The position numbers were made by a program, and so were the translations under genes. A DNA stretch of 64,000 nucleotides from a virus: IMG/VR virus record IMGVR_UViG_3300031841_005609, positions 32,001-96,000 of that record. One strand, written 5' to 3'. Shown in pieces: positions 11,380 to 41,900 of this stretch. The number at the start of each line of letters is the position of its first letter. Position 1 is the first letter of the stretch. Below the pieces are notes generated by a model. It searched no databases. It had not been told where the DNA came from and saw only the letters and a program-made list of their open reading frames with translations.

Positions 11380-11422
11380 ATATTTATCAGAGAGATTCGT
11401 TTTGAAAAACAGTTTTCAAAAA
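11380..11422 (+). promoter_or_regulatory. putative late promoter (ATATTTA) with a 5' leader hairpin
   Basis: ATATTTA at 11380; inverted repeat TTTTGAAAA/TTTTCAAAA at ~11400-11421; SD AGGAG at 11425. Confidence 0.5.
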
Positions 11423-15955: not shown

Positions 15956-16503
15956 TAATACTTGGACTAGATATATCAACATCAGTGACAGCCTACACAG
16001 TCTTAGACTCAGAAAGACCTCCAGGGCAAAGGCTTGTCCTTTCTGAAGGAATACACCTTTCTAAAATAAAAGATTCTTACGCCAAGTCCTGCAAGGTCAG
16101 GGATGAGTTTAGAAAGCTATCTGAGAAGTGGAAAGTTGACAAGATAATCGTAGAAGAGTCTTTACAGTCTTTTAGATCTGGTCTTTCTTCTGCGAAAACC
16201 CTTTCTGCCTTGACTAGATTTAATGGAATTGTAAGTTTTTTCGCTCAAGATATCTTTGAAGCCCCGTGTGAAAGAATAAACGTAAATTCAGCTCGCTCTA
16301 GACTCGGAATTAAGATAGACCGAAAGTCTTCTGTCTCTAGTAAGGAACAGGTTAGAGACTGGGTCATGAACCACGAAGACTTTAAGAACTTTCCGTGGCC
16401 TACAAAGACTTTGAAATCGGGACCAAGAAAAGGCCTTACAATATACGATGTTTCTTGTCAAGATATTGCAGATAGTGCCGTGATGGCTCTTTGTAGCACT
16501 TAA
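15952..16503 (+). CDS. RuvC-like Holliday junction resolvase
   Basis: IILGLDISTS, IIVEE and DIADS acidic RNase H-fold motifs; TTG start overlaps the upstream stop. Confidence 0.75.
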   Translation: MIILGLDISTSVTAYTVLDSERPPGQRLVLSEGIHLSKIKDSYAKSCKVRDEFRKLSEKWKVDKIIVEESLQSFRSGLSSAKTLSALTRFNGIVSFFAQDIFEAPCERINVNSARSRLGIKIDRKSSVSSKEQVRDWVMNHEDFKNFPWPTKTLKSGPRKGLTIYDVSCQDIADSAVMALCST

Positions 16504-16532
16504 TTGAACACTTCGCTCCTTAATCATATTAT
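16504..16532 (+). promoter_or_regulatory. sigma70-like promoter giving a leaderless primase mRNA
   Basis: TTGAAC (16504)-N17-TATTAT (16527); ATG 16539 lies at the expected +1. Confidence 0.55.
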
Positions 16533-16538
16533 TCATTG

Positions 16539-30553: not shown

Positions 30554-32422
30554 ATGTCTACATTTTCACTCGAACAGCTGACAGAGGGGATCCGTCAGAG
30601 GCATCTAGGATCTCAGAACCGTGAGCTGACAGAAAAATGGGCGAGAACTGGTCTTCTCAAGGGTCTTGACGGTGTCAAGCGTGAGAACATGGCTCGCCTC
30701 ATGGAGAACCAGGCCGCCCAGGTTCTTAAGGAGCAGTCATCCCTTTCAAACGGCGGTGGTGGTCTTGCCAACAGCGGCGACATGCGTGGTTTCACGAACA
30801 TCGCATTCCCAATTGTTCGTCGCGTATTCGGTGGTTTGATCGCAAATGACCTAGTTTCAATCCAGCCAATGAGCCTTCCGTCCGGACTCTTGTTCTACTT
30901 GGATTACACACGTCCAGGTTTGACAAGCATCCACGAAGACGGAGTGCATGTAATAAGCTCAGGTTCTTCTGCTTACGGAGATCCAGTTGGAAGCTCAGTC
31001 CAGACAGGTGCCGATGGAAAAGGAGGTCTCTACGACCTTGCTGGAAGCGCCTATTCTAGAGTTCACAGTGCCCAAGACGGGATAACCATATCAAACTCAG
31101 GTTCATTCTCAGGCGCCGACGGCGCATGGAGAGATCACCCAGGCGATGATGCAGCCACTCACCATGAAAGAGTAGTTGCGGCCACCGGTTCTGACGGAAA
31201 GGCGATCCAGTTTGATCCCCAGCTTACTAGCTTGATTGAAGCAAGAACGCACGCTTTTGACATTAAGTTTATCTCTCTTGCGACGGGTTACACAAATGCA
31301 GACACATCTCTTGTCAAGGAGTGGGGATTGGACGGCGGTACTTGTGGAGCTATCGATAGTGCAATTCAGACAGGGAACAGCAAGAACGTTCGTAGATTAA
31401 ATCAGCTGGTTACCTGGGATGGAACGAATTATGAGCCTGCCCCTCTAGGTGTACCTGGAGAAACAGCGAACCTTCACTTGTTGACAGTATGTTCTTCATC
31501 AATTCGTACTGCTCCAGGTCTTGGAAACGCTGCAAACGACACGCCTCCTACGAAACTTACTTTCCCGATCAAAGATTCTCTCACATCAGGAAACGGAAGC
31601 TCAGTTGTTGTTCCTTCTTTCGAGTCGGACTTCGGATCAACTCCATCGCCGGCGATTCCAGAGATCGACATCAAGGTTGAGGCTCTTCCTGTTGTAGCTC
31701 AGTCCAGAAAGCTTCGAGCTCGATGGTCACCAGAGCTCGCTCAGGATCTCAATGCATACCACAGTCTTGATGCAGAAGTAGAGCTCACTCAAATTCTCTC
31801 AGAGCAGATCGCTCTTGAGATCGACAGAGAGGTTCTTAACGATCTTCTCACACAAGCTGGTGCAGCTAACTACTACTGGTCAAGAGCTCCTGGTCGATTC
31901 CTCAACAAGGAGACAGGTGCTGTTCAAGACTCTGGTTTCGCTTCTTTCACAGGAACAGTTCGCGAATGGTATGAGACACTTGTTGAAACCATCATTGATG
32001 TCGCTAACCAGATCCACAGAAAGACGCTTAGAGGATCTGCTAACTTCATTGTTGTTGGTCCGGATGTTGCAACAATTCTCGAAGCCTCAGTTCTCTACAA
32101 GCCATCATACAGCTTGGACGGCGACGGCCAGGTGAGCGGAATGGTTATTGGTGCAGAAAAGGTTGGTACTTTGAGCAACCGATTCACAGTCTACAAGGAC
32201 CCATACTTCCCAAGAAATAAGGTTCTCGTAGGTTACAAGGGCGGAAGCTACTTGGAGACAGGCTATGTCTATGCTCCTTATGTACCTTTGATTGTTACAC
32301 CAACAATCTTCGCTCCTGAAGATTTCACTCCTCGTAAGGGCGTTATGACTCGTTACGGCAAGAAGATGGTTCGAGCCGACTTCTACGGAACAGTTACGTG
32401 CGCTGACATGAGCGTGATCTAA
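30554..32422 (+). CDS. major capsid protein copy 1 (T4 gp23-like)
   Basis: VSIQPMSLPSGLLFYLDY, RKLRARWSPELAQDLNAYH, YAPYVPL and FTPRKGVMTRYG; SD AAGGAG. Confidence 0.95.
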   Translation: MSTFSLEQLTEGIRQRHLGSQNRELTEKWARTGLLKGLDGVKRENMARLMENQAAQVLKEQSSLSNGGGGLANSGDMRGFTNIAFPIVRRVFGGLIANDLVSIQPMSLPSGLLFYLDYTRPGLTSIHEDGVHVISSGSSAYGDPVGSSVQTGADGKGGLYDLAGSAYSRVHSAQDGITISNSGSFSGADGAWRDHPGDDAATHHERVVAATGSDGKAIQFDPQLTSLIEARTHAFDIKFISLATGYTNADTSLVKEWGLDGGTCGAIDSAIQTGNSKNVRRLNQLVTWDGTNYEPAPLGVPGETANLHLLTVCSSSIRTAPGLGNAANDTPPTKLTFPIKDSLTSGNGSSVVVPSFESDFGSTPSPAIPEIDIKVEALPVVAQSRKLRARWSPELAQDLNAYHSLDAEVELTQILSEQIALEIDREVLNDLLTQAGAANYYWSRAPGRFLNKETGAVQDSGFASFTGTVREWYETLVETIIDVANQIHRKTLRGSANFIVVGPDVATILEASVLYKPSYSLDGDGQVSGMVIGAEKVGTLSNRFTVYKDPYFPRNKVLVGYKGGSYLETGYVYAPYVPLIVTPTIFAPEDFTPRKGVMTRYGKKMVRADFYGTVTCADMSVI

Positions 32423-32442
32423 AAGAAGTACGACTTCTAACT

Positions 32443-32471
32443 AAAGGGAGGCTTTTTGCCTCCCTTTTTTT
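32443..32471 (+). terminator. intrinsic terminator after MCP1
   Basis: AAAGGGAGGC-TTTTT-GCCTCCCTTT followed by a T run. Confidence 0.85.
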
Positions 32472-32489
32472 ATTTTTGAAATCGAGTTC

Positions 32490-32496
32490 ATATTTA
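32490..32496 (+). promoter_or_regulatory. putative late promoter for MCP2 (ATATTTA)
   Basis: Motif directly after the terminator; same ATATTTATTAAC context as 35707. Confidence 0.6.
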
Positions 32497-32501
32497 TTAA
32501 C

Positions 32502-32705
32502 ATGCTAGTGAAAAGTTTCACTAGAAAGTGCTTTGCGAAATGGCTGATGAGAATCTGATGCCGCGAGCTTTTGGTGGTTTGAGCATGGTGCAAAAGCCAC
32601 AAAACAGAGGATGGATAACCCTGGAATGTCGCCCCGGCAAAAAGCCTAGTGGGGTCGGTCGATGAGTTTTGAACATCCGCTGAAACGATGATAAAGACAT
32701 TACTT
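32502..32705 (+). ncRNA. structured 5' leader / candidate cis-regulatory RNA of MCP2 (family not recognised)
   Basis: Consecutive helices at 32505-24, 32542-62, 32569-604 and 32605-13/32674-82 (enclosing 32632-54); GC-richer than other spacers. Confidence 0.5.
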
Positions 32706-32720
32706 ATTAAGGAGAAAAAA

Positions 32721-34637
32721 ATGTCAACATTTTCATTGGAGCAGCTGACGGAAGGAATCCGAAGCCGACACCTCGGGTCACAAAACCGACAGCTTGTTGA
32801 AAAGTGGGCGAGAACTGGTCTTCTCAAGGGTCTTGACGGTGTCAAGCGTGAGAACATGGCTCGTCTTATGGAGAATCAGGCGTCACAGGTTCTTAAGGAA
32901 CAATCAAGCCTTTCAAACGGCGGTGGTGGTCTTGCCAACAGCGGCGACATGCGTGGTTTCACAAACATCGCATTCCCGATCGTAAGAAGAGTTTTCGGCG
33001 GCCTTATTGCTAACGATCTCGTAAGCATTCAGCCCATGAGCCTTCCTTCAGGTCTCTTGTTCTACTTGGATTACACAAGAGGAACCGAAGTTGGATCTTC
33101 TGACAACCCAGTATATAGCAGTGGCGACTCAGTATACAACAGCCCAGTTGGCAAAGGCGTTCAGAGTGGATCTCTCGCAGTTGGTGGACAGTATGACTTG
33201 GCTGGAAGTGGTTACACCAGAGTTCATGAAACAAACGAAGACGTCGACTTAGGCACCGATGGTCTTGCTGCTCTTTCAAGAATTTTTACCATGGACGCAA
33301 ACGGTGATGCTACAGTAGCAACTGCTGCTCAGCTGGATCCAGTCGCGACCACAGGTCGTGCGGGTAAGCTTCTTCAGTTTGATCCACAGATCATAAAGCA
33401 GCTTGACGAAGGAACTGCTGAATATCACTTCATGCTTATTCCTCTGACCACTGACTGCTTCGGCTCAAACTTTGACACGACTCTTGTGAAGGAAGTTGGA
33501 CTAGTTGTTCACACCGCCCTGCCGTCAGATGTTCTTCTCAACGTAGACAGCTCTGTACAAAGCGGTTCAACTAGAAACGTTAGACGTTTGAATCAGCTTG
33601 TTACAGTTACTGGTGGAACTGACGCCGCCGCACTTACTACTGATAACATCGAGGCTCTGACTTCTACCCCGCTTGCTCAAGTTGGCGACACCGGTGCATG
33701 TTTGCTCATGGTTGTTCGACACAAGCCAGGTTCAACGTTCGCTGCTAGCGATCTTAACGATGGCGATCACATCGGAATCACCTATCCTGTTGCAGACAAG
33801 TTAGAGTCAGGAAGCGGCAGCTCAGTTGTTGTTCCTTCTTTCGAGTCTAACTTCGGAGCAACTCCATCACCTGAGATCCCAGAGATCGACATTAAGGTTG
33901 AGGCTTTGCCAGTTGTAGCTCAGTCACGTAAGTTGCGAGCACGTTGGTCACCAGAGCTTGCTCAGGATCTTAATGCATACCACAGCCTTGACGCTGAGGT
34001 TGAGTTGACACAGATCCTTTCAGAGCAGATCGCTCTTGAGATCGATAGAGAAGTTCTTAACGACCTTCTTACCCAGGCGGGAGCTGCTAACTACTACTGG
34101 TCACGTGCACCAGGTCGTTTCTTGAACAAGGAGACAGGTTCAGTTTCAAGCATCGGTACTTTCACCGGTACGGTTCGTGAGTGGTATGAGACTCTCGTAG
34201 AGACGATTATCGACGTTGCAAACCAGATCCACAGAAAGACACTGCGTGGTTCCGCAAACTTCATCGTTGTTGGACCAGACGTTGCTACTATCCTTGAAGC
34301 AAGCGTTCTCTACAAGCCATCATACAGCCTCGACGGTGACGGACAGGTTAGTGGTATGGTGATCGGAGCTGAGAAGGTTGGTACCCTTTCAAATCGTTTC
34401 ACGGTTTACAAGGATCCTTACTTCCCACGCAACAAGGTTCTTGTTGGATACAAGGGCGGAAGCTACCTTGAGACTGGTTACGTATACGCTCCATACGTAC
34501 CTCTCATCGTTACTCCAACGATCTTCGCACCTGAGGACTTCACCCCACGTAAGGGTGTCATGACTCGCTACGGTAAGAAGATGGTTCGAAGTGACTTCTA
34601 CGGTACCGTTACATGCGCCGACATGAGCGTGATCTAA
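32721..34637 (+). CDS. major capsid protein copy 2 (T4 gp23-like)
   Basis: Same motifs as copy 1 with a different central domain; start 32721 after SD AAGGAG matches the copy 1 N-terminus (in-frame ATG also at 32688). Confidence 0.95.
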   Translation: MSTFSLEQLTEGIRSRHLGSQNRQLVEKWARTGLLKGLDGVKRENMARLMENQASQVLKEQSSLSNGGGGLANSGDMRGFTNIAFPIVRRVFGGLIANDLVSIQPMSLPSGLLFYLDYTRGTEVGSSDNPVYSSGDSVYNSPVGKGVQSGSLAVGGQYDLAGSGYTRVHETNEDVDLGTDGLAALSRIFTMDANGDATVATAAQLDPVATTGRAGKLLQFDPQIIKQLDEGTAEYHFMLIPLTTDCFGSNFDTTLVKEVGLVVHTALPSDVLLNVDSSVQSGSTRNVRRLNQLVTVTGGTDAAALTTDNIEALTSTPLAQVGDTGACLLMVVRHKPGSTFAASDLNDGDHIGITYPVADKLESGSGSSVVVPSFESNFGATPSPEIPEIDIKVEALPVVAQSRKLRARWSPELAQDLNAYHSLDAEVELTQILSEQIALEIDREVLNDLLTQAGAANYYWSRAPGRFLNKETGSVSSIGTFTGTVREWYETLVETIIDVANQIHRKTLRGSANFIVVGPDVATILEASVLYKPSYSLDGDGQVSGMVIGAEKVGTLSNRFTVYKDPYFPRNKVLVGYKGGSYLETGYVYAPYVPLIVTPTIFAPEDFTPRKGVMTRYGKKMVRSDFYGTVTCADMSVI

Positions 34638-34662
34638 TAAAAATTTAGATCAAAATGTATCT

Positions 34663-34696
34663 GGGGCGTCCTGAAAAGGACGCCCCTTTTTTTTTT
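34663..34696 (+). terminator. intrinsic terminator after MCP2
   Basis: GGGGCGTCCT-GAAA-AGGACGCCCC plus T10. Confidence 0.9.
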
Positions 34697-34719
34697 GAAG
34701 CGACCTTGAAATTCTTTAG

Positions 34720-34726
34720 ATACTTA
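34720..34726 (+). promoter_or_regulatory. putative late promoter core (ATACTTA)
   Basis: 8 nt before ATG 34735, no SD. Confidence 0.5.
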
Positions 34727-34734
34727 AAAGAGTT

Positions 34735-35283
34735 ATGTCTAAAAAGTCAAAAAAATCAAGCAGTCTAGAAAGTCTTCGAAAACTTGTTGATAATCTAACT
34801 GATAGAGACGTTCAGATCAAAAGAGACTTTCGACTTTTCGAGTCGTTTCTTGAGAACTTCCCCATCCCAGTCACCATGTGGTCTGCAAACTTAGACGGAC
34901 TAGTCTTGAACAAAAAAGACAGAGGTTTCTTTTGCAAGACGGGAGACAAGATTGAAGATCTGTTTTCTTGTGAGTCTCTTGCAGACACTGTTTTCAAAAA
35001 ACACAAGGAAGCTCTTTCCGGAGAGCCTAACAGCACTTTGATTCAAAAGATGGAAAAAACTTTCTATGTAACAGTTGCTCCTCGACATGATAACGATAAC
35101 ATTGTCATAGGAGTTTCTGGAATTGCGTGGGATGTATCTTCTAACAGTTTCATATTAGATACATTGATCGACATTAAAAATGTCACAGAGACGAAATCTG
35201 GGACTTTTGAAGAGATTAATGAAAAAGCTTCTAAAGCTATTGAAAAGAGTAGACTTTTTCTTCTAGCAAAGGAGGGCAAGTAA
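34735..35283 (+). CDS. stand-alone PAS-domain protein
   Basis: FESFLENFPIPV..W..NLDG..; ALSGE..; FYVTVAPRHDNDNIVIGVSGIAWDVS fits a PAS/PAC pattern. Confidence 0.75.
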   Translation: MSKKSKKSSSLESLRKLVDNLTDRDVQIKRDFRLFESFLENFPIPVTMWSANLDGLVLNKKDRGFFCKTGDKIEDLFSCESLADTVFKKHKEALSGEPNSTLIQKMEKTFYVTVAPRHDNDNIVIGVSGIAWDVSSNSFILDTLIDIKNVTETKSGTFEEINEKASKAIEKSRLFLLAKEGK

Positions 35284-35284
35284 G

Positions 35285-35617
35285 ATGTCATCTGATTCAA
35301 ACCAAAATGGATGGAATGAATATTCTAGACTGGTTTTAAAAGAACTTGAAAATCTTGCAGACAACATTGACGGTCTCAAGGAAGAGCTTCAAGAAGTCAA
35401 GCAAGAAATTGCCAAGATGCAAGTTCGAGAAGACAAGGTAGATGAGCTTAAGACCTGGAAAGAGAAAGTAGACGAAGTAGTTTCTCCAACCCAGCTGTCC
35501 AATCTTGTCAAAGAAGTCGAAGAGCTTAAGATGTTCAAGACCAAGGCAATCACCACATTTGCAGTCGTTCAGTTCTTGATGGCTCTTTGGGCTTGGTCTC
35601 AAAAATTTATGCAATAA
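35285..35617 (+). CDS. coiled-coil protein with a C-terminal TM helix (holin-like architecture)
   Basis: Heptad region followed by AITTFAVVQFLMALWAW; SD AAGGAGG. Confidence 0.55.
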   Translation: MSSDSNQNGWNEYSRLVLKELENLADNIDGLKEELQEVKQEIAKMQVREDKVDELKTWKEKVDEVVSPTQLSNLVKEVEELKMFKTKAITTFAVVQFLMALWAWSQKFMQ

Positions 35618-35706
35618 ATTTCTTAAGCATAGGTTGAACTAATCAGCCCAGCGATCATGCGAAATCTTTCAACAATTAAAGACCCAGATAATTGCAAGTC
35701 GACTCG

Positions 35707-35713
35707 ATATTTA
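35707..35713 (+). promoter_or_regulatory. putative late promoter core (ATATTTA)
   Basis: Upstream of the neck gene; GAGGTG SD follows. Confidence 0.55.
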
Positions 35714-35732
35714 TTAACAGTGAGGTGTGTAA

Positions 35733-36902
35733 ATGTCTAGATTTGTCGACATATTGAATCCAACTCCTTTTGGATTTTTTGACTCTGAGATTGCTTTTCA
35801 AAACGAAGCCGATTCTGTCGTCACTTTCATAAAGAGAAAGCTTGGTGATGATATCCTTAGTGTTGAACTAACCAAGCGACAGATCTGGGCCTGCCTTGAA
35901 GAATCCGCTTTGGAATACAGCTCGATCATAAATCAGTATCAGGCAAAGTCTCAGCTTGCGAATCTTCTAGGGGGACCAACAGGTTCACTGGATGGTGTAG
36001 AGCAAAAGTTTCCAAGAGAAAATCTAGAGTTTATGCTTCGAAGAGCTGAACCCTATTCTATGGAAGCGGGTCTCGGCGGTGTTTATAACATGCTTTCCGG
36101 ATCTATTGCTCTCGAAAAAGGAAAGCAGGACTACGATCTGTATTCAGATCTCAAAGGAGCCGATGGCAACGCTCTATTCGATAATGCTGCTAACAATCCG
36201 AAAACTAAGATGAAAGTGATGGAAGTTTTTCACTTCAGCCCACAGGCTGCATATCGATTTTTCGATACAACTTCTGCTATCAACTATCTTAACAACGAAT
36301 TTAGCTTTGAGTCATTTACACCAGAGACAGTCTTTTATGTGCTACCAGTTTTTGAGGATGTTCTCCGAGGCGGAATGCTTGATATGTCCTCGAGAGTTAG
36401 AAGAAGTAACTTTTCATATAAAATAACTGGAACAAAGATAAGAATCTTTCCGATTCCCACGAGTACAAACCCACAGAATCTTTTTATAAGAGTTCACTTT
36501 TCGCCTGATCCACTTAAGCCGGCTTTTAAAGATGCCTCTATTGAGGGCATTAGCAATCTTTCCAACATTCCGTATGGAAGACTTGAATATTCTAGAATTA
36601 ATTCTATTGGAAGGCAATGGATCAGACAGTATGCCCTTGCTCTTTCTCGAGAGTTACTAGGGTTGGTTAGATCTAAATTTTCAACAGTACCTATTCCTGG
36701 TTCTGATCTTCAGTTGAACGGAACAGAGTTAATATCCCAGGGAAGAGAGGACAAAGAAAACTTAAAGACAAAACTAGGAGAAATGCTAGACGAGCTAACA
36801 TATGACAAGATGCTTGAGTCAGAAGCGGCAGCTAGCGAAAATCTTACCAGAATTCTTAAAGCTATTCCGATGCCAAACGGAAAAGCAATTTCAATGGGTT
36901 AA
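35733..36902 (+). CDS. neck/head-tail adaptor protein (gp13-like)
   Basis: RKLG..LSVELT..QI..CLEE N-terminus; WIRQYALALSRELLGLVRSKF..PG..LNG. Confidence 0.8.
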   Translation: MSRFVDILNPTPFGFFDSEIAFQNEADSVVTFIKRKLGDDILSVELTKRQIWACLEESALEYSSIINQYQAKSQLANLLGGPTGSLDGVEQKFPRENLEFMLRRAEPYSMEAGLGGVYNMLSGSIALEKGKQDYDLYSDLKGADGNALFDNAANNPKTKMKVMEVFHFSPQAAYRFFDTTSAINYLNNEFSFESFTPETVFYVLPVFEDVLRGGMLDMSSRVRRSNFSYKITGTKIRIFPIPTSTNPQNLFIRVHFSPDPLKPAFKDASIEGISNLSNIPYGRLEYSRINSIGRQWIRQYALALSRELLGLVRSKFSTVPIPGSDLQLNGTELISQGREDKENLKTKLGEMLDELTYDKMLESEAAASENLTRILKAIPMPNGKAISMG

Positions 36903-36908
36903 CAATAG

Positions 36909-37577
36909 ATGGCTAGACTTTTTATAACCCCACGAGAAATAGATCTGATATCAGACTTGACCAAAGAGGTCATCAAAGATGTCGCTGGTCAAAAAGTCTA
37001 TTACTACAGGGTTAGAGAAGACTTAAGCAACGTTCATGACGTGTACGAAGAGTCACCTGACAAAGTTTTTGACCCTCCTATCGAAGTTGAAGCAAGAGTT
37101 GAATATCTACCAGAAGAAATAAGAACGAATCGTTTTGGCGGAGAAGAGTTTTACTCTATTAACGTTTTCTTTCATGAACGAGATCTCCTAGACAGAGATA
37201 TTGATGTTCGAACCGGTGATTACTTTAGCTACGGAGACACTTTTTTCGAAATAACCAGTGCTATCGTTGAGTCAAACGTTTACGGACAGATTGAGCATGC
37301 TATTGGAGTTAAAGTAACCGGAAAGCAGGCGAGAATCGGACAAATAGATAAGACTCCTAACGGACCTACTAGCGAGCAATACACCGATGAGGATGCTGTT
37401 CAAGAGACTTTCGTTCAACAGAGAGGCTTCGAGGAGAACAGGCTTGGGCCCACCGAAGACAAGAGACAACTTCAGGAAGACGGAAAGCTTGACAAGCCTT
37501 TGACGGGACCTCAAGAAGTTTCACCTCGAGCAGACAAAGAAGATGAAGTGAAGTCTTCTTTTTATGATGAGATTTAA
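36909..37577 (+). CDS. neck/head-closure protein (gp14-like)
   Basis: Position; GQKVYYY..DVYEES..FDPP; GDYFSYGDTFFEI. Confidence 0.65.
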   Translation: MARLFITPREIDLISDLTKEVIKDVAGQKVYYYRVREDLSNVHDVYEESPDKVFDPPIEVEARVEYLPEEIRTNRFGGEEFYSINVFFHERDLLDRDIDVRTGDYFSYGDTFFEITSAIVESNVYGQIEHAIGVKVTGKQARIGQIDKTPNGPTSEQYTDEDAVQETFVQQRGFEENRLGPTEDKRQLQEDGKLDKPLTGPQEVSPRADKEDEVKSSFYDEI

Positions 37578-37579
37578 AA

Positions 37580-38866
37580 ATGTCGACTCGATACTATAAA
37601 AACAAAAACGATGGGACTTCAAGATCTGCTGGATACGAAGGTTCGAACATACCTGACGACTTTAATGTTCCTTCGTGTACTATAGAGGATGTTGACAGAG
37701 CTCTTTTCGATCTCTTTGACAAGCAGCTTCCGTTTACATACAAGCATAAAGAAGGTACTAAAAGAGCTCCGGTTATATTCGCATCAGGCGAAAGATTTGC
37801 CGTCCTTAGGAGAAAAGAACCCTTAAGGGACAAGTCAGGGGCTCTTGTTCTTCCGCTTGTCTCTATAATGAGAACAGGAATATCTCAGGTTCCTACGATG
37901 GGAGCTGGAACATCTCAGAATACTCCTCACGTCGTGAAGAGAAAGCTTTCAAAAGATGACCCTGAGTATCAAAGGCTTCTAAACAAAAGGGGACTAAGAA
38001 ACTCCGACGACCTTCCGTCTAAGAATTCTCTTGCTGATCCTGAGAATCCCGTAAAAGAAAAGGCTGCTCCTGGAAAGAACGCTTCCAGAAGAGACATACC
38101 TTCTAGGAGAGACACGAACGATATCGGAAATCCTCTAGGTCAGAACATCTATGAGATCATTGAGATACCGCCGCCGAAATATTTTACTGCATCTTACGAG
38201 ATAACACTCTGGTCACAGTACACTCTTCAGATGAACGATATGATAACGGCTCTCATGTCCCTATATCAGTCGTATTCTCAGAGAACCTTTCAGCTTGAGA
38301 CAGACAAGGGATACTGGTTTGTAGGCTACGCCGGAGAGGACCTCAATCCTGGTAACAACTTTGATGATTTCACAGATAGTGAAAGAATAGTCAGGTACAC
38401 ATTTACTATGACAGTCCCGGGCTATCTTGTCAATCCCCAGTTCCCCGGAAGTCAAAACGGAGTGAGAAGATATGTTTCTGCTCCTGAGATATCTTTTGAT
38501 GCAATCCTCTCTGCTGGAGAGTTTGAACCTTTCACCCAGGAAGGACCAATTTCCGGAAATCCTTCTGATCATGTCCTTGAGGACTTGAGAACTGTTGATG
38601 AACCGCTCCCTGGCCAGCAAATAGGGTCGACAAATTTTGCAGCTTCAGATTCTCGTGGCATATTTAGAAAAAGACAAGGTTCTCAATCGGTCGATTCAGC
38701 TCTAAAGCAAACGTCGATTGGGGGCACTTTCACTGACGATAATAGGACAAAAATTATTCAATATGATAGAGATCCTTTCACCGGAAAGAAGATTAGAAAA
38801 TCTCTCCATGTCAAAAACAGAACGAATAGAATGGGAGAGACGGTTTTGAGAGAGACTCTTGATTAG
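37580..38866 (+). CDS. tail terminator/sheath stabiliser (gp15-like)
   Basis: PVIFASGERF, LPLVSIMRT, YEITLWS, RYTFTMTVPGYL; position before the sheaths. Confidence 0.65.
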   Translation: MSTRYYKNKNDGTSRSAGYEGSNIPDDFNVPSCTIEDVDRALFDLFDKQLPFTYKHKEGTKRAPVIFASGERFAVLRRKEPLRDKSGALVLPLVSIMRTGISQVPTMGAGTSQNTPHVVKRKLSKDDPEYQRLLNKRGLRNSDDLPSKNSLADPENPVKEKAAPGKNASRRDIPSRRDTNDIGNPLGQNIYEIIEIPPPKYFTASYEITLWSQYTLQMNDMITALMSLYQSYSQRTFQLETDKGYWFVGYAGEDLNPGNNFDDFTDSERIVRYTFTMTVPGYLVNPQFPGSQNGVRRYVSAPEISFDAILSAGEFEPFTQEGPISGNPSDHVLEDLRTVDEPLPGQQIGSTNFAASDSRGIFRKRQGSQSVDSALKQTSIGGTFTDDNRTKIIQYDRDPFTGKKIRKSLHVKNRTNRMGETVLRETLD

Positions 38867-38884
38867 AATTTTGAAACGAACATG

Positions 38885-38891
38885 ATAATTA
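38885..38891 (+). promoter_or_regulatory. putative late promoter core (ATAATTA)
   Basis: Upstream of sheath 1; SD AGGAG follows. Confidence 0.5.
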
Positions 38892-38921
38892 AAAGATGCA
38901 TAGAACGTTCTAGGAGATACA

Positions 38922-41900
38922 ATGGCTGAGCAAACATTTAGATCACCCGGGTTTTTTGAACAGGAAATTGACCTTTCTGCTAGGCAAATAGCTCCTGTCG
39001 GAACACCCGCTGGAGTCATAGGTACATCAGAATTTGGACCCGCATTTGTTCCAGTAACGGTAGGATCTTTCGCCGATTTTGAATCACGTTTTGGTACGCT
39101 ACACCCAGACAGATTCGGACCTTATGCCGTAAGAGAATTTTTAAAGCACAGATCAGCTTTAACCTATCTTAGAGTTTTGGGAGCTGGAGCCAATGAGACC
39201 TCCACAGACATCCAGAACACTGAGCAGTACGGTTACGTTAAAAACGCCGGCTTCCGACTTACCGGTTCTTTGATGACTGACACTGATGGCGAAGGCGCTG
39301 ATGATCTTGCATTTCAGGGCGGTGTTGCTATTATATCTGCTAAACACACGCCCGTTGCTCACGAAGCGGCCAGCTATAGCTTATATACAGATAATGCTAG
39401 TATTAGTAACAACACTGACGCTCATCTGGTCAGAGGCGTTGTCTTCTTAACAACTGGTTCTAAGCTCCAGATTCTTGATCACGATCAAAACTGGTCAATC
39501 GTAAATTCAAGAGCCGCCGGCGCTGAGGTCGGTGCCATTGGTGGTCTTTCAGATCAGAAATATTTTAAGCTTGCGATCAGCTCTTCTGCTGGAGCTTCTT
39601 TTTCAAATGATGAAGGAGTCCCGGGAATTAGAATTCTTACCGCATCCCTTGATCCGAACGACGGACAGTACATCGGCAAAGTTCTAAACACAAATCCACA
39701 GAATTTTCAGAAGGAGCAACACCTTCTCTACTTAGACTATGCAGTTGAGCACGAACTCGCTCCTGTTACTGTAACCCCAGGAACAGACACAGTTGCAGTT
39801 CTTTCTGGTACGATAAATACTTCTACTAGAAACTCACTAAGATATGACAACATTGTAGGTCGTTACGACACGAGATACACAACTCCTCGAACTACAAGCT
39901 TTATATCACAACCTTTCGGAAAGAAGGAGTTTGATCTCTTTCACTTTGAGACAATTTCTGATGGTGCTTATGCAAACGATAAATTTAAGGTCTCTATAGC
40001 TAATCTTCGGGCTTCGACGGATCCGAACGATGCTTACGGAACTTTTGAAGTCCAGGTAAGACTCTTCGATGACAAAGATACATCTACTGAGATCATCGAG
40101 AGATATCCTGAATGTAGTCTCAACCCAAGAAGCGATAGATACGTTGCTAGAGTTATTGGTGACAAAAAGGTTAGATACGATTTCGATCAGGAAGATCCTT
40201 CGGAAAGACGTCTTGTAATAACAGGAAAATATCCAAACCTTTCTTCTAGAATTAGAATCCAAATGAACGCTGGGATAGAAGCCGGCGAAGTTCCTGCAAC
40301 TGCGCTTCCTTTTGGTTTTAGAGGAATACCGGTTCTAAAGACCAACAATTCTTTGACTGATGGTCTTACTGGACTCACCGACTCTGAGTCAAGAGCTTTG
40401 GGGGAAACAGTCCCAGACAATAGAAAGACACACAGGCTTAATTCTAACACTGATGCTGTTGCGCTAACAAGAGCAATAGTTCCTCCGATGCCGTATAGAT
40501 TTAAGGTAACTAGAGGGGAAGCATCTTCTGATTCTACACCTGGTTTCGTTGGAACTCCTGGAACAAACGAAAGAGTTGACGGAAGATATTATTGGGGTGT
40601 TAATTCATTAAGAATTCCAACTGCAGGATCTACTACAAATCCTGTCCTCAATTCAAACGCAGGAAACACGGTTAATCCTCTCGTTAGGGCTTATACCAAG
40701 TTCCAAGGAATTGAGAAGCTGGATGCACTTGTTTCTGGTTCTGCTGCTGATGAATTTAACTCAAACAAGTTCACGCTTGCAAGAGTTGCCTTCTCAAACA
40801 AAACGGCAAACAACTCTCTATATGATGTTTTCTCAGCCTTTACTGGATCAGCTCCGGAGCACATGCTTGAAGCTGCTTACATCAGAGACGGACAGCCGGA
40901 TAGAAACACGTATGTTGTGGATGATAGAGTCGCCGCAGGAAATAGATTTACTCTCGCTTCTTTGATTCACACTAGCTCGGTTCTCTTTAACAGATTCACC
41001 TCTTACGCTAAGTTTACCAACGTGTTCCACGGCGGATTCGACGGGCTTAATATCCTAGACAGAGATCTCTCGCTATTCAGGGATAAGGCGTTCTCAGTAG
41101 ACGCCGGAGGTAAATCAGTTGAAACAGGAATGAATATCGGTCTCGCTGATGTTGATTCAAAGAACCAGGGTGGTTCCGGAAGAAGAAGCAACAGTAACGC
41201 ATCTATGAGAAGAGCTGTTGATATCATGACTGATCCGATGTCTTCGAACATCAACATCCTTGCAATACCGGGCGTAAGAGAAACATTCGTATCGGATCAC
41301 GCCCTTGAGAAGACCAGAGATTATTCGAAGGCTATGTACTTGCTAGATACTCTAAAGTACGATGAAAACGGAAATAGACTTTACGACGACAGCAAGGCTC
41401 GAGTGGATGTGAGAGAAACATCAGAGCAGTTCGAGAGCAGAGCTATCGACAACAACTACGCAGCTACATACTTCCCAGATGTTTTTATACAGGATCCTAT
41501 TAACAACAGAAATGTTAAGGTTCCTGCTTCGGTAGCGGCTTTGGGAACGTTGGCTTTCAACGACAGAGTTTCTTTCCCTTGGTTCGCACCTGCTGGTTTT
41601 AATCGAGGTGGAATGGACTTCGTTGTAAATGTCGAAAACAGACTCACTTCTGGAGACAGAGACACACTGTATGATGCAAGAATGAATCCTATAGCTGTTT
41701 TCCCGAACACTGGTTTCGTTATCTTCGGGCAGAAAACTCTGCAGTTTACAAAGTCTGCTCTCGACAGAGTCAACGTTAGACGCCTGATGCTAGAGATTAA
41801 ACGACAGGTTACTGGAGTGGCTGAAAGATTCTTGTTCGAGCCGAACAACGCTACGACTCGATCTAGGTTCGTAAGCCAGATAACTCCACTTCTTGGACTC

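Follow-up and report, generated by a model that had tools for sequence, protein, structure and literature searches.

In bacteriophage T4 the capsid paralogues 23 and 24 each have their own late promoter, TATAAATA, and the late promoter box lies at -13 to -6. Bacterial 5'-terminal stabiliser hairpins, such as that of the ompA 5' UTR, protect mRNA from RNase E 5'-end-dependent decay; the T4 gene 32 mRNA leader is a translational operator bound by the gene's own product; and kink-turn or box C/D elements, which comprise a C-stem, a 3-nt bulge and tandem sheared G.A pairs, are bound by L7Ae-family proteins. Among the titles that topic searches of the literature listed, none dealt with a structured leader RNA in front of a phage capsid gene, or with tandem capsid paralogues of the kind described here. 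The locus that we analysed resembles the T4 gene 23/24 late units in carrying tandem Gp23-family paralogues behind a scaffold gene, a short A/T-rich box at a fixed distance before late genes, and intrinsic terminators after the capsid genes.

The window, by which we mean the whole 64,000-nt stretch of DNA analysed, covers positions 32001-96000 of an IMG/VR viral contig of 106 kb (38% complete by CheckV), on which all large genes lie on the + strand. As the nearest cultured phages are only ~38-43% identical at the amino acid level (Flavobacterium phage immuto, ~43%; Rhodothermus phage RM378, 38%), the source phage is, judged by these identities, an uncultured, distant relative of T4. A 583-nt "gap" in the ATG-only gene call, at 15956-16538 of the window, also looks coding on the + strand; its open frame has a non-ATG start and an N-terminal motif that appears, by eye only, like that of a RuvC-like resolvase.

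Capsid gene copy 1 (30554-32422, + strand) follows the scaffold gene after a gap of 9 nt and encodes a Gp23-family protein of 622 aa (Pfam PF07068, E 6.8e-76; PHROG 138), and copy 2 (32721-34637, + strand) encodes a second Gp23-family protein of 638 aa (PF07068, E 1.8e-76). The two copies are 65-69% identical (tblastn), with near-identical ends and a divergent central domain, and are separated by a spacer of 298 nt (32423-32720) that holds a terminator, a promoter box and the inferred leader of copy 2. When relatives of the capsid proteins were sought in IMG/VR, in metagenome contigs and in contigs of GTDB genomes, the matches listed included none above 71% amino acid identity, and among the 160 loci fetched from the IMG/VR and metagenome matches listed (at most 71% amino acid identity) only one, L024, had tandem capsid genes, the remainder having a single capsid gene directly behind the scaffold gene. 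Closer capsid relatives, at 73-79% identity in a protein search, seem to occur in pairs, as judged by a shared longest contig (P0003 with P0009, P0004 with P0014 and P0005 with P0016, on contigs of 8,633, 21,867 and 214,031 nt). With these closer relatives' proteins seemingly paired and other relatives single-copy, the tandem capsid arrangement appears to mark a small clade.

Within the spacer, a strong intrinsic terminator of copy 1 was found at 32443-32474 (+ strand), its stem (32443-32467) having 10 bp, 6 of them G-C, and a 5-nt loop, followed by a T-run; it is among the 17 perfect hairpins of at least 8 bp in the genome. The terminator scan gave a similar intrinsic terminator for copy 2 at 34663-34686 (+ strand). 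A putative late-type phage promoter follows the first of these at 32481-32503 (+ strand), with the core box ATATTTAT at 32490-32497. The 106-kb genome has five copies of this box, each of them + strand, between genes and ahead of a gene (11380, 32490, 35707, 47577 and 72746 in window numbering, the last being G000 104746), at 18-223 nt ahead of a start codon, and of the 23 nt around the box at 32490, 18 agree with the sequence that precedes gene 35733. A like strand bias was seen in relatives' capsid loci, with 67 copies on the gene strand vs 13 on the opposite strand. As the T4 late box TATAAATA is absent from the window, ATATTTAT was taken as a variant box; it resembles T4-type late promoters in that a short A/T box, here at a predicted position of about -10, precedes genes and in this genome lies solely on their coding strand, and is likely, from its distribution, to be the late-promoter box of this uncultured T4-like group. 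A literature search returned no paper holding ATATTTAT together with "phage" and "promoter".

Two further hairpins were seen close to copies of this box. One, at window 11400-11421, has a perfect A/T stem of 9 bp and follows the ATATTTAT box at 11380 after 12 nt; apart from H1, described below, this genome has no other hairpin close to such a promoter. Beyond the window, at G000 104589-104776 (L346 190-377), a 188-nt spacer with a long closing stem and a U-run lies just upstream of a ATATTTAT box; it gave no Rfam or tRNA match and had a folding z of -1.39.

When the T4 late box spacing is applied to the box at 32490, transcription should start near 32503 +/- 2, where the stretch singled out in an initial annotation of this DNA (32502-32720) begins; we infer both the promoter and the 5' end from this motif. 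That annotation had assigned the stretch to the leader of capsid copy 2, and the assignment was supported, as the stretch lies downstream of the terminator and promoter box and no promoter-like box was found near 32700. So placed, the stretch most probably forms a 5' UTR of exceptional length for copy 2. Our preferred reading, to which we give a probability of about 0.55, is that the stretch is the long 5' UTR of an independently transcribed copy 2, formed at a lineage-specific tandem junction, with a hairpin at its 5' end (H1), mildly constrained hairpins in its middle and an inherited, open ribosome-binding site.

For copy 2, 223 nt separate the end of ATATTTAT from the ATG; the other four boxes lie 48, 18, 32 and 23 nt from theirs, so the inferred 5' untranslated leader of copy 2 (32504-32720, + strand; ~218 nt between the promoter box and the SD/ATG) is exceptional in length, and the annotated claim that other late leaders here are much shorter (18-48 nt) was correct. 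With 4-12 times the length of the other leaders that start from this box, the leader lends some weight to a first alternative, which on balance we consider unlikely: that it is a true cis-regulatory RNA by which the amount of copy 2 is set against that of copy 1, acting either as an operator for a capsid, scaffold or other phage protein or as a small-molecule sensor. The GC content of 48.7% (32504-32690), above other intergenic DNA (30-37% in most intergenic regions), also speaks for this alternative. This GC content resembles that of coding DNA or structured RNA, unlike most spacers, and its likeness to coding DNA is a point in favour of a second alternative, also improbable in our estimate, in which the stretch is a functionless junction scar of ex-coding or inserted DNA with accidental hairpins, where only the promoter and the ribosome-binding site matter.

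The spacer had been described as almost fully pairable, and its listed helices are all present, that of H4 with one A/G mismatch. H1 (32505-32524, + strand) is a perfect 8-bp hairpin with a 4-nt loop, in which 32505-32512 pairs with 32517-32524; it has a folding energy of -9.3 kcal/mol, begins 7 nt after the box and lies at the predicted 5' end of the transcript, ~1-3 nt from the inferred start. H2 (32542-32562, + strand) has a 3-bp base stem (GGC at 32542-32544 with GCC at 32560-32562), a symmetric internal loop that allows U.U, G.A, A.G and U.U oppositions and hence tandem G.A pairs, and a small hairpin. H3 (32569-32604, + strand) has a 7-bp stem (32574-32580 with 32594-32600), an inner 3-bp stem and flanking U4/A4, and is found in both the MFE and the centroid folds of the window and of its close relative L162, introduced below. 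The H4 domain (32605-32682, + strand), in which 32605-32613 and 32674-32682 are paired at 8 of 9 positions (mismatch A32608/G32679), encloses a hairpin at 32632-32654; it is the centroid of the local fold and is also found in the L162 MFE.

The pairability of the stretch was nevertheless no more than chance. The MFE of 32502-32720 was -57.5 kcal/mol vs -51.8 +/- 4.2 kcal/mol for dinucleotide shuffles (n=200), giving a z of -1.35 with 20 of the 200 shuffles equalling it, and "almost fully pairable" is therefore expected of any RNA with this composition. H2 (z -0.55), H3 (z -1.13), the H4 domain (z -1.31) and its inner hairpin (z -1.26) behaved likewise, and H1 alone (z -4.29, 0 of 200 shuffles) was the only element to stand out. 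The observation in the initial annotation thus stands as to the sequence facts but not as to pairability beyond chance: H1 folds better than its shuffles, and the whole stretch, H2, H3 and H4 do not (z -0.55 to -1.35). A folding energy close to that of shuffles everywhere except at H1 argues against the leader being a regulatory RNA; the overall z of -1.35 is in keeping with a functionless scar, against which stands H1, far more stable than chance. Hairpins showed no general enrichment behind ATATTTAT in the relatives (mean z -0.13 vs -0.31 in controls), so that a stabiliser role for H1 is only an analogy. The inverted repeat of H1 might just as well serve as an operator at the DNA level, because the change that it carries in L162 keeps 7 of the 8 symmetric positions.

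Homologues of the leader were few. The called ORFs of the capsid proteins P0003, P0014 and P0018, on three further contigs, run ~60-72 nt into the same leader, giving 20-24 extra N-terminal residues translated from the leader's 3' end; a protein search with this N-terminal extension matched only P0014, P0018 and P0001. A degenerate 29-nt DNA pattern, built from the motif TSA[DE]TM...KEK in the extension, found the close relative L162 (IMGVR_UViG_3300012936_000333) in IMG/VR and gave no match in genome contigs; three further DNA patterns gave only chance matches and L162. A partial look-alike in L307/L310 was rejected as unrelated coding sequence. There was no match by blastn among the INPHARED phages, and the covariance models R1 and R2, run against the window and 171 loci (~1.1 Mb), recovered only the window, L162 and scaffold junctions, so that blastn and covariance models together gave no leader homologue in the ~1.1 Mb of relatives' capsid loci beyond those matches. 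On these searches the leader element is confined to a narrow clade. The lack of further homologues in these loci counts against a regulatory RNA, as does the independent tandem pair of L024, whose 108-nt spacer is unrelated to that of the window and has no such leader. The 3' ~72 nt, conserved in the three further contigs although the reading frame is not, counts in favour of one.

In L162 the copy 2 protein is 96% and the copy 1 protein 87% identical to those of the window, the spacer is 95.7% and the leader 94% identical, and both the terminator with the promoter (81 nt) and the last 74 nt of the spacer are identical. The leader differences amount to 11 substitutions and two 1-nt insertions, all in 32513-32646. 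At H1, three of the four loop bases differ and one stem pair has changed from U-A to U-G; at H2, C32544-G32560 in the base stem has become U-A, a compensatory change; H3 has a change at the bulge at 32573 and an insertion after 32591, in the internal A-run; and the H4 domain has three changes, all at unpaired bases, with one loop change and one G-C to G-U change in its inner hairpin. The segment 32527-32536, for which the initial annotation had proposed alternative pairing with 32563-32568 or with 32693-32701, is invariant between the two. The conservation in a relative that a structured leader would be expected to have was thus seen in this one relative, with all of the proposed pairs kept, one change compensatory and two G-U-compatible. 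None of the 41 pairs drawn in the initial annotation was broken by the 13 differences (permutation P ~0.03), and when the permutation was limited to 32504-32650 zero broken pairs occurred in 1% of trials. In these permutations each change was moved to a randomly chosen base of its own kind, a procedure that is independent of the making of the model; the result comes from one relative and would be weaker if the three loop changes at H1 were one event.

The preservation of 41 of 41 pairs with one compensatory change supports our preferred reading as well as a regulatory RNA and, with P at 0.03, weighs against a functionless scar, although the two 1-nt insertions tolerated in L162 are as a scar would allow. 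The leader diverges from L162 by 5.9% (13/219), where third codon positions in the adjoining capsid sequences diverge about twice as much (11.7-14.6%; 87/638) and those in the downstream genes by 33-42%, a difference that again speaks for our preferred reading and for a regulatory RNA, and against a scar. Identity between the window and L162 nevertheless varies from 55 to 100% per 100 nt, with some 100% bins inside capsid copy 2, and therefore recombination tracts could explain part of the low leader divergence; such patchiness could account for the conservation if the stretch were a scar. Across window 31187-40351 the comparison is strongly mosaic, third-codon divergence being 12-15% in the capsid genes and 33-42% in the downstream neck genes. 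The comparison as a whole suggests that the capsid module was exchanged or converted recently.

The 3' end of the leader gave an indication of where it came from. Its last 29 nt match, with 86% identity and in the same position, the scaffold-capsid junction of L001 and L082, the closest single-copy relatives (blastn E 0.003-0.014), and covariance model R2 recovered the same junctions (23.5 bits, E ~0.09). Copy 2 therefore carries a scaffold-gene tail, a scar of the scaffold gene 3' end (32692-32720, + strand) that includes the ancestral SD AAGGAG at 32709-32714, and by this homology the last ~30 nt of the leader is derived from the scaffold gene 3' end and is no dedicated RNA domain. The homology may extend to ~32631: of the local and semi-global alignments, the one region to give a suggestive result was 32631-32691 against L001 (semi-global z 2.2, 16 of 500 shuffles), and the extension was not confirmed by a protein profile of scaffold C-termini, which was negative, or by an nhmmer profile of 124 scaffold 3' ends, which matched in the SD region only and not significantly. 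The origin of 32504-~32630 was sought by tblastx and blastn in the rest of the genome and the relatives' loci, with negative results. That the 3' end is a scaffold-gene remnant, possibly extending to ~32631, favours a functionless scar, and that the most conserved part of the leader is this remnant tells against a regulatory RNA. Beyond copy 2 the downstream sequence hardly differs from that of L001, the closest single-copy relative, but the copy 1 terminator resembles the capsid-gene terminators of other lineages (82% over 39 nt in L090, with a weak E of ~0.02-0.05; L021 by eye only). The junction is therefore no simple in-place duplication, and the pattern hints that one capsid cassette may have been acquired by recombination.

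In our preferred reading of a long 5' UTR, transcripts of the scaffold gene and copy 1 would end at the terminator at 32443-32474, and ATATTTAT at 32490 would restart transcription near 32503. The new mRNA would open with H1, whose role, as we infer it, is most likely to shield the 5' end from 5'-end-dependent decay. The next ~150 nt would form three modest hairpins, kept in one sequenced close relative, and the final ~30 nt, a legacy of the scaffold gene's 3' end, would bring with it an ancestral unpaired ribosome-binding site. The leader would in this way supply copy 2 with a promoter and an mRNA 5' end of its own, and with the same strong translation start as that of copy 1.

The function proposed in the initial annotation, a riboswitch-like element, a thermometer or a protein-binding operator, did not gain the support that the long leader did. 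Rfam 15 gave 0 matches at gathering thresholds in the whole window, where a known family had been looked for at the suggestion of that annotation. A permissive search of 32380-32780 gave terminator look-alikes as its best matches (at most 27 bits vs 50-70), with nothing above ~15 bits inside 32504-32720. The SD, which lies 6 nt before the ATG of copy 2 as it does for copy 1, is predicted to be unpaired with a probability of 0.73 in the window and in L162 alike, and the terminator scan found no terminator/antiterminator (attenuator) inside 32504-32720; with the SD predicted open and no internal terminator, the leader therefore has no recognisable riboswitch expression platform. The AUG is predicted to lie in a short 5-bp stem with 32697-32701, and the same stem is possible in single-copy L001. 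A thermometer of the ROSE or fourU type was rejected on the mostly unpaired SD (~73%). For an aptamer, the covariation amounted to one compensatory pair and two wobble changes in a single DNA homologue, L162. The lack of an Rfam family, the open SD without an internal terminator and the shuffle-like energy all stand against a regulatory RNA, and we see no sign of ligand, temperature or protein sensing by the leader.

The suggestion of a box C/D- or K-turn-like internal loop in H2 was also given up. The GGC/GCC register, which the compensatory change supports, yields a symmetric 4x4 loop and leaves no 3-nt bulge; pairing in the box C/D register would instead make a C-stem of G-U, U-G and A-C, none of them Watson-Crick. 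The motif itself (TGATGA, 3-8 nt, CTGA) has 7 chance occurrences on the + strand of the 106 kb, and the Rfam C/D models scored 13-15 bits vs gathering scores of 46-70.

A more specific form of regulation, in which the leader is a clade-specific cis-regulatory RNA setting the ratio of two capsid isoforms, for example by feedback binding of capsid or scaffold protein at H2-H4, seems to us a long shot. The isoforms would share core domains and differ in surface domains, and H1 together with the pair-preserving changes would be the first structural trace of such a system.

Three upstream frames can be read in the leader, from ATG 32540 to TGA 32665, from ATG 32662 to TGA 32691, and from ATG 32688, which is in frame with copy 2. 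The two insertions in L162 shift the 41-codon frame of ATG 32540 twice, so that it ends at 32670-32672 and the first overlap is lost; an in-frame stop is present at 32670 in the window and in L162, with the frame open in P0003 and P0014 and interrupted by an indel in P0018. From the stop at 32670, the L162 insertions and the P0018 indel, the upstream frames are therefore not conserved. That these frames form an overlapping relay feeding ribosomes into copy 2, or encode an N-terminally extended capsid protein, is very improbable despite both ATGA overlaps being present in the sequence and an in-frame upstream ATG in 5 of 5 known leaders, since, apart from their poor conservation, no upstream ATG has an SD where nearly every gene here has AGGAG, and the small ORFs of the spacer were called by no gene caller and are absent from the protein collection.

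Copy 2 appears to have its own terminator-promoter-leader unit, and its junction retains a datable scaffold-gene scar that shows the origin of the tandem arrangement. Should the leader indeed tune copy 2, it would belong to a system in which two capsid isoforms come from genes that are each under their own control, and such separately controlled isoforms, if real, would bear on how phages vary their surface. The folding results carry a more general lesson, that a sequence judged "fully pairable" on inspection does not, as a rule, outdo its shuffles.

Compared with the systems set out at the start, the locus differs from the T4 gene 23/24 units in that its box is ATATTTAT, its leader is ~218 nt long, its capsid copies are 65-69% identical where T4 gp23 and gp24 are much more distant, and its tandem arrangement is limited to a small clade, most relatives being single-copy. 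With the T4 gene 32 operator it shares a long leader before an abundantly expressed phage gene, for which dosage control is plausible, but no pseudoknot or operator repeat was recognised here and the ribosome-binding site is open. Like kink-turn and box C/D elements it has UGAUGA and CUGA 4 nt apart, with potential tandem G.A pairs, but the supported register of H2 is symmetric and without the 3-nt bulge. Hairpins are not general behind ATATTTAT in the relatives and the transcription start is here a predicted one, unlike the stabilisers of the ompA type; like them, H1 is stable, lies near the predicted start, and has a conserved stem and a variable loop.
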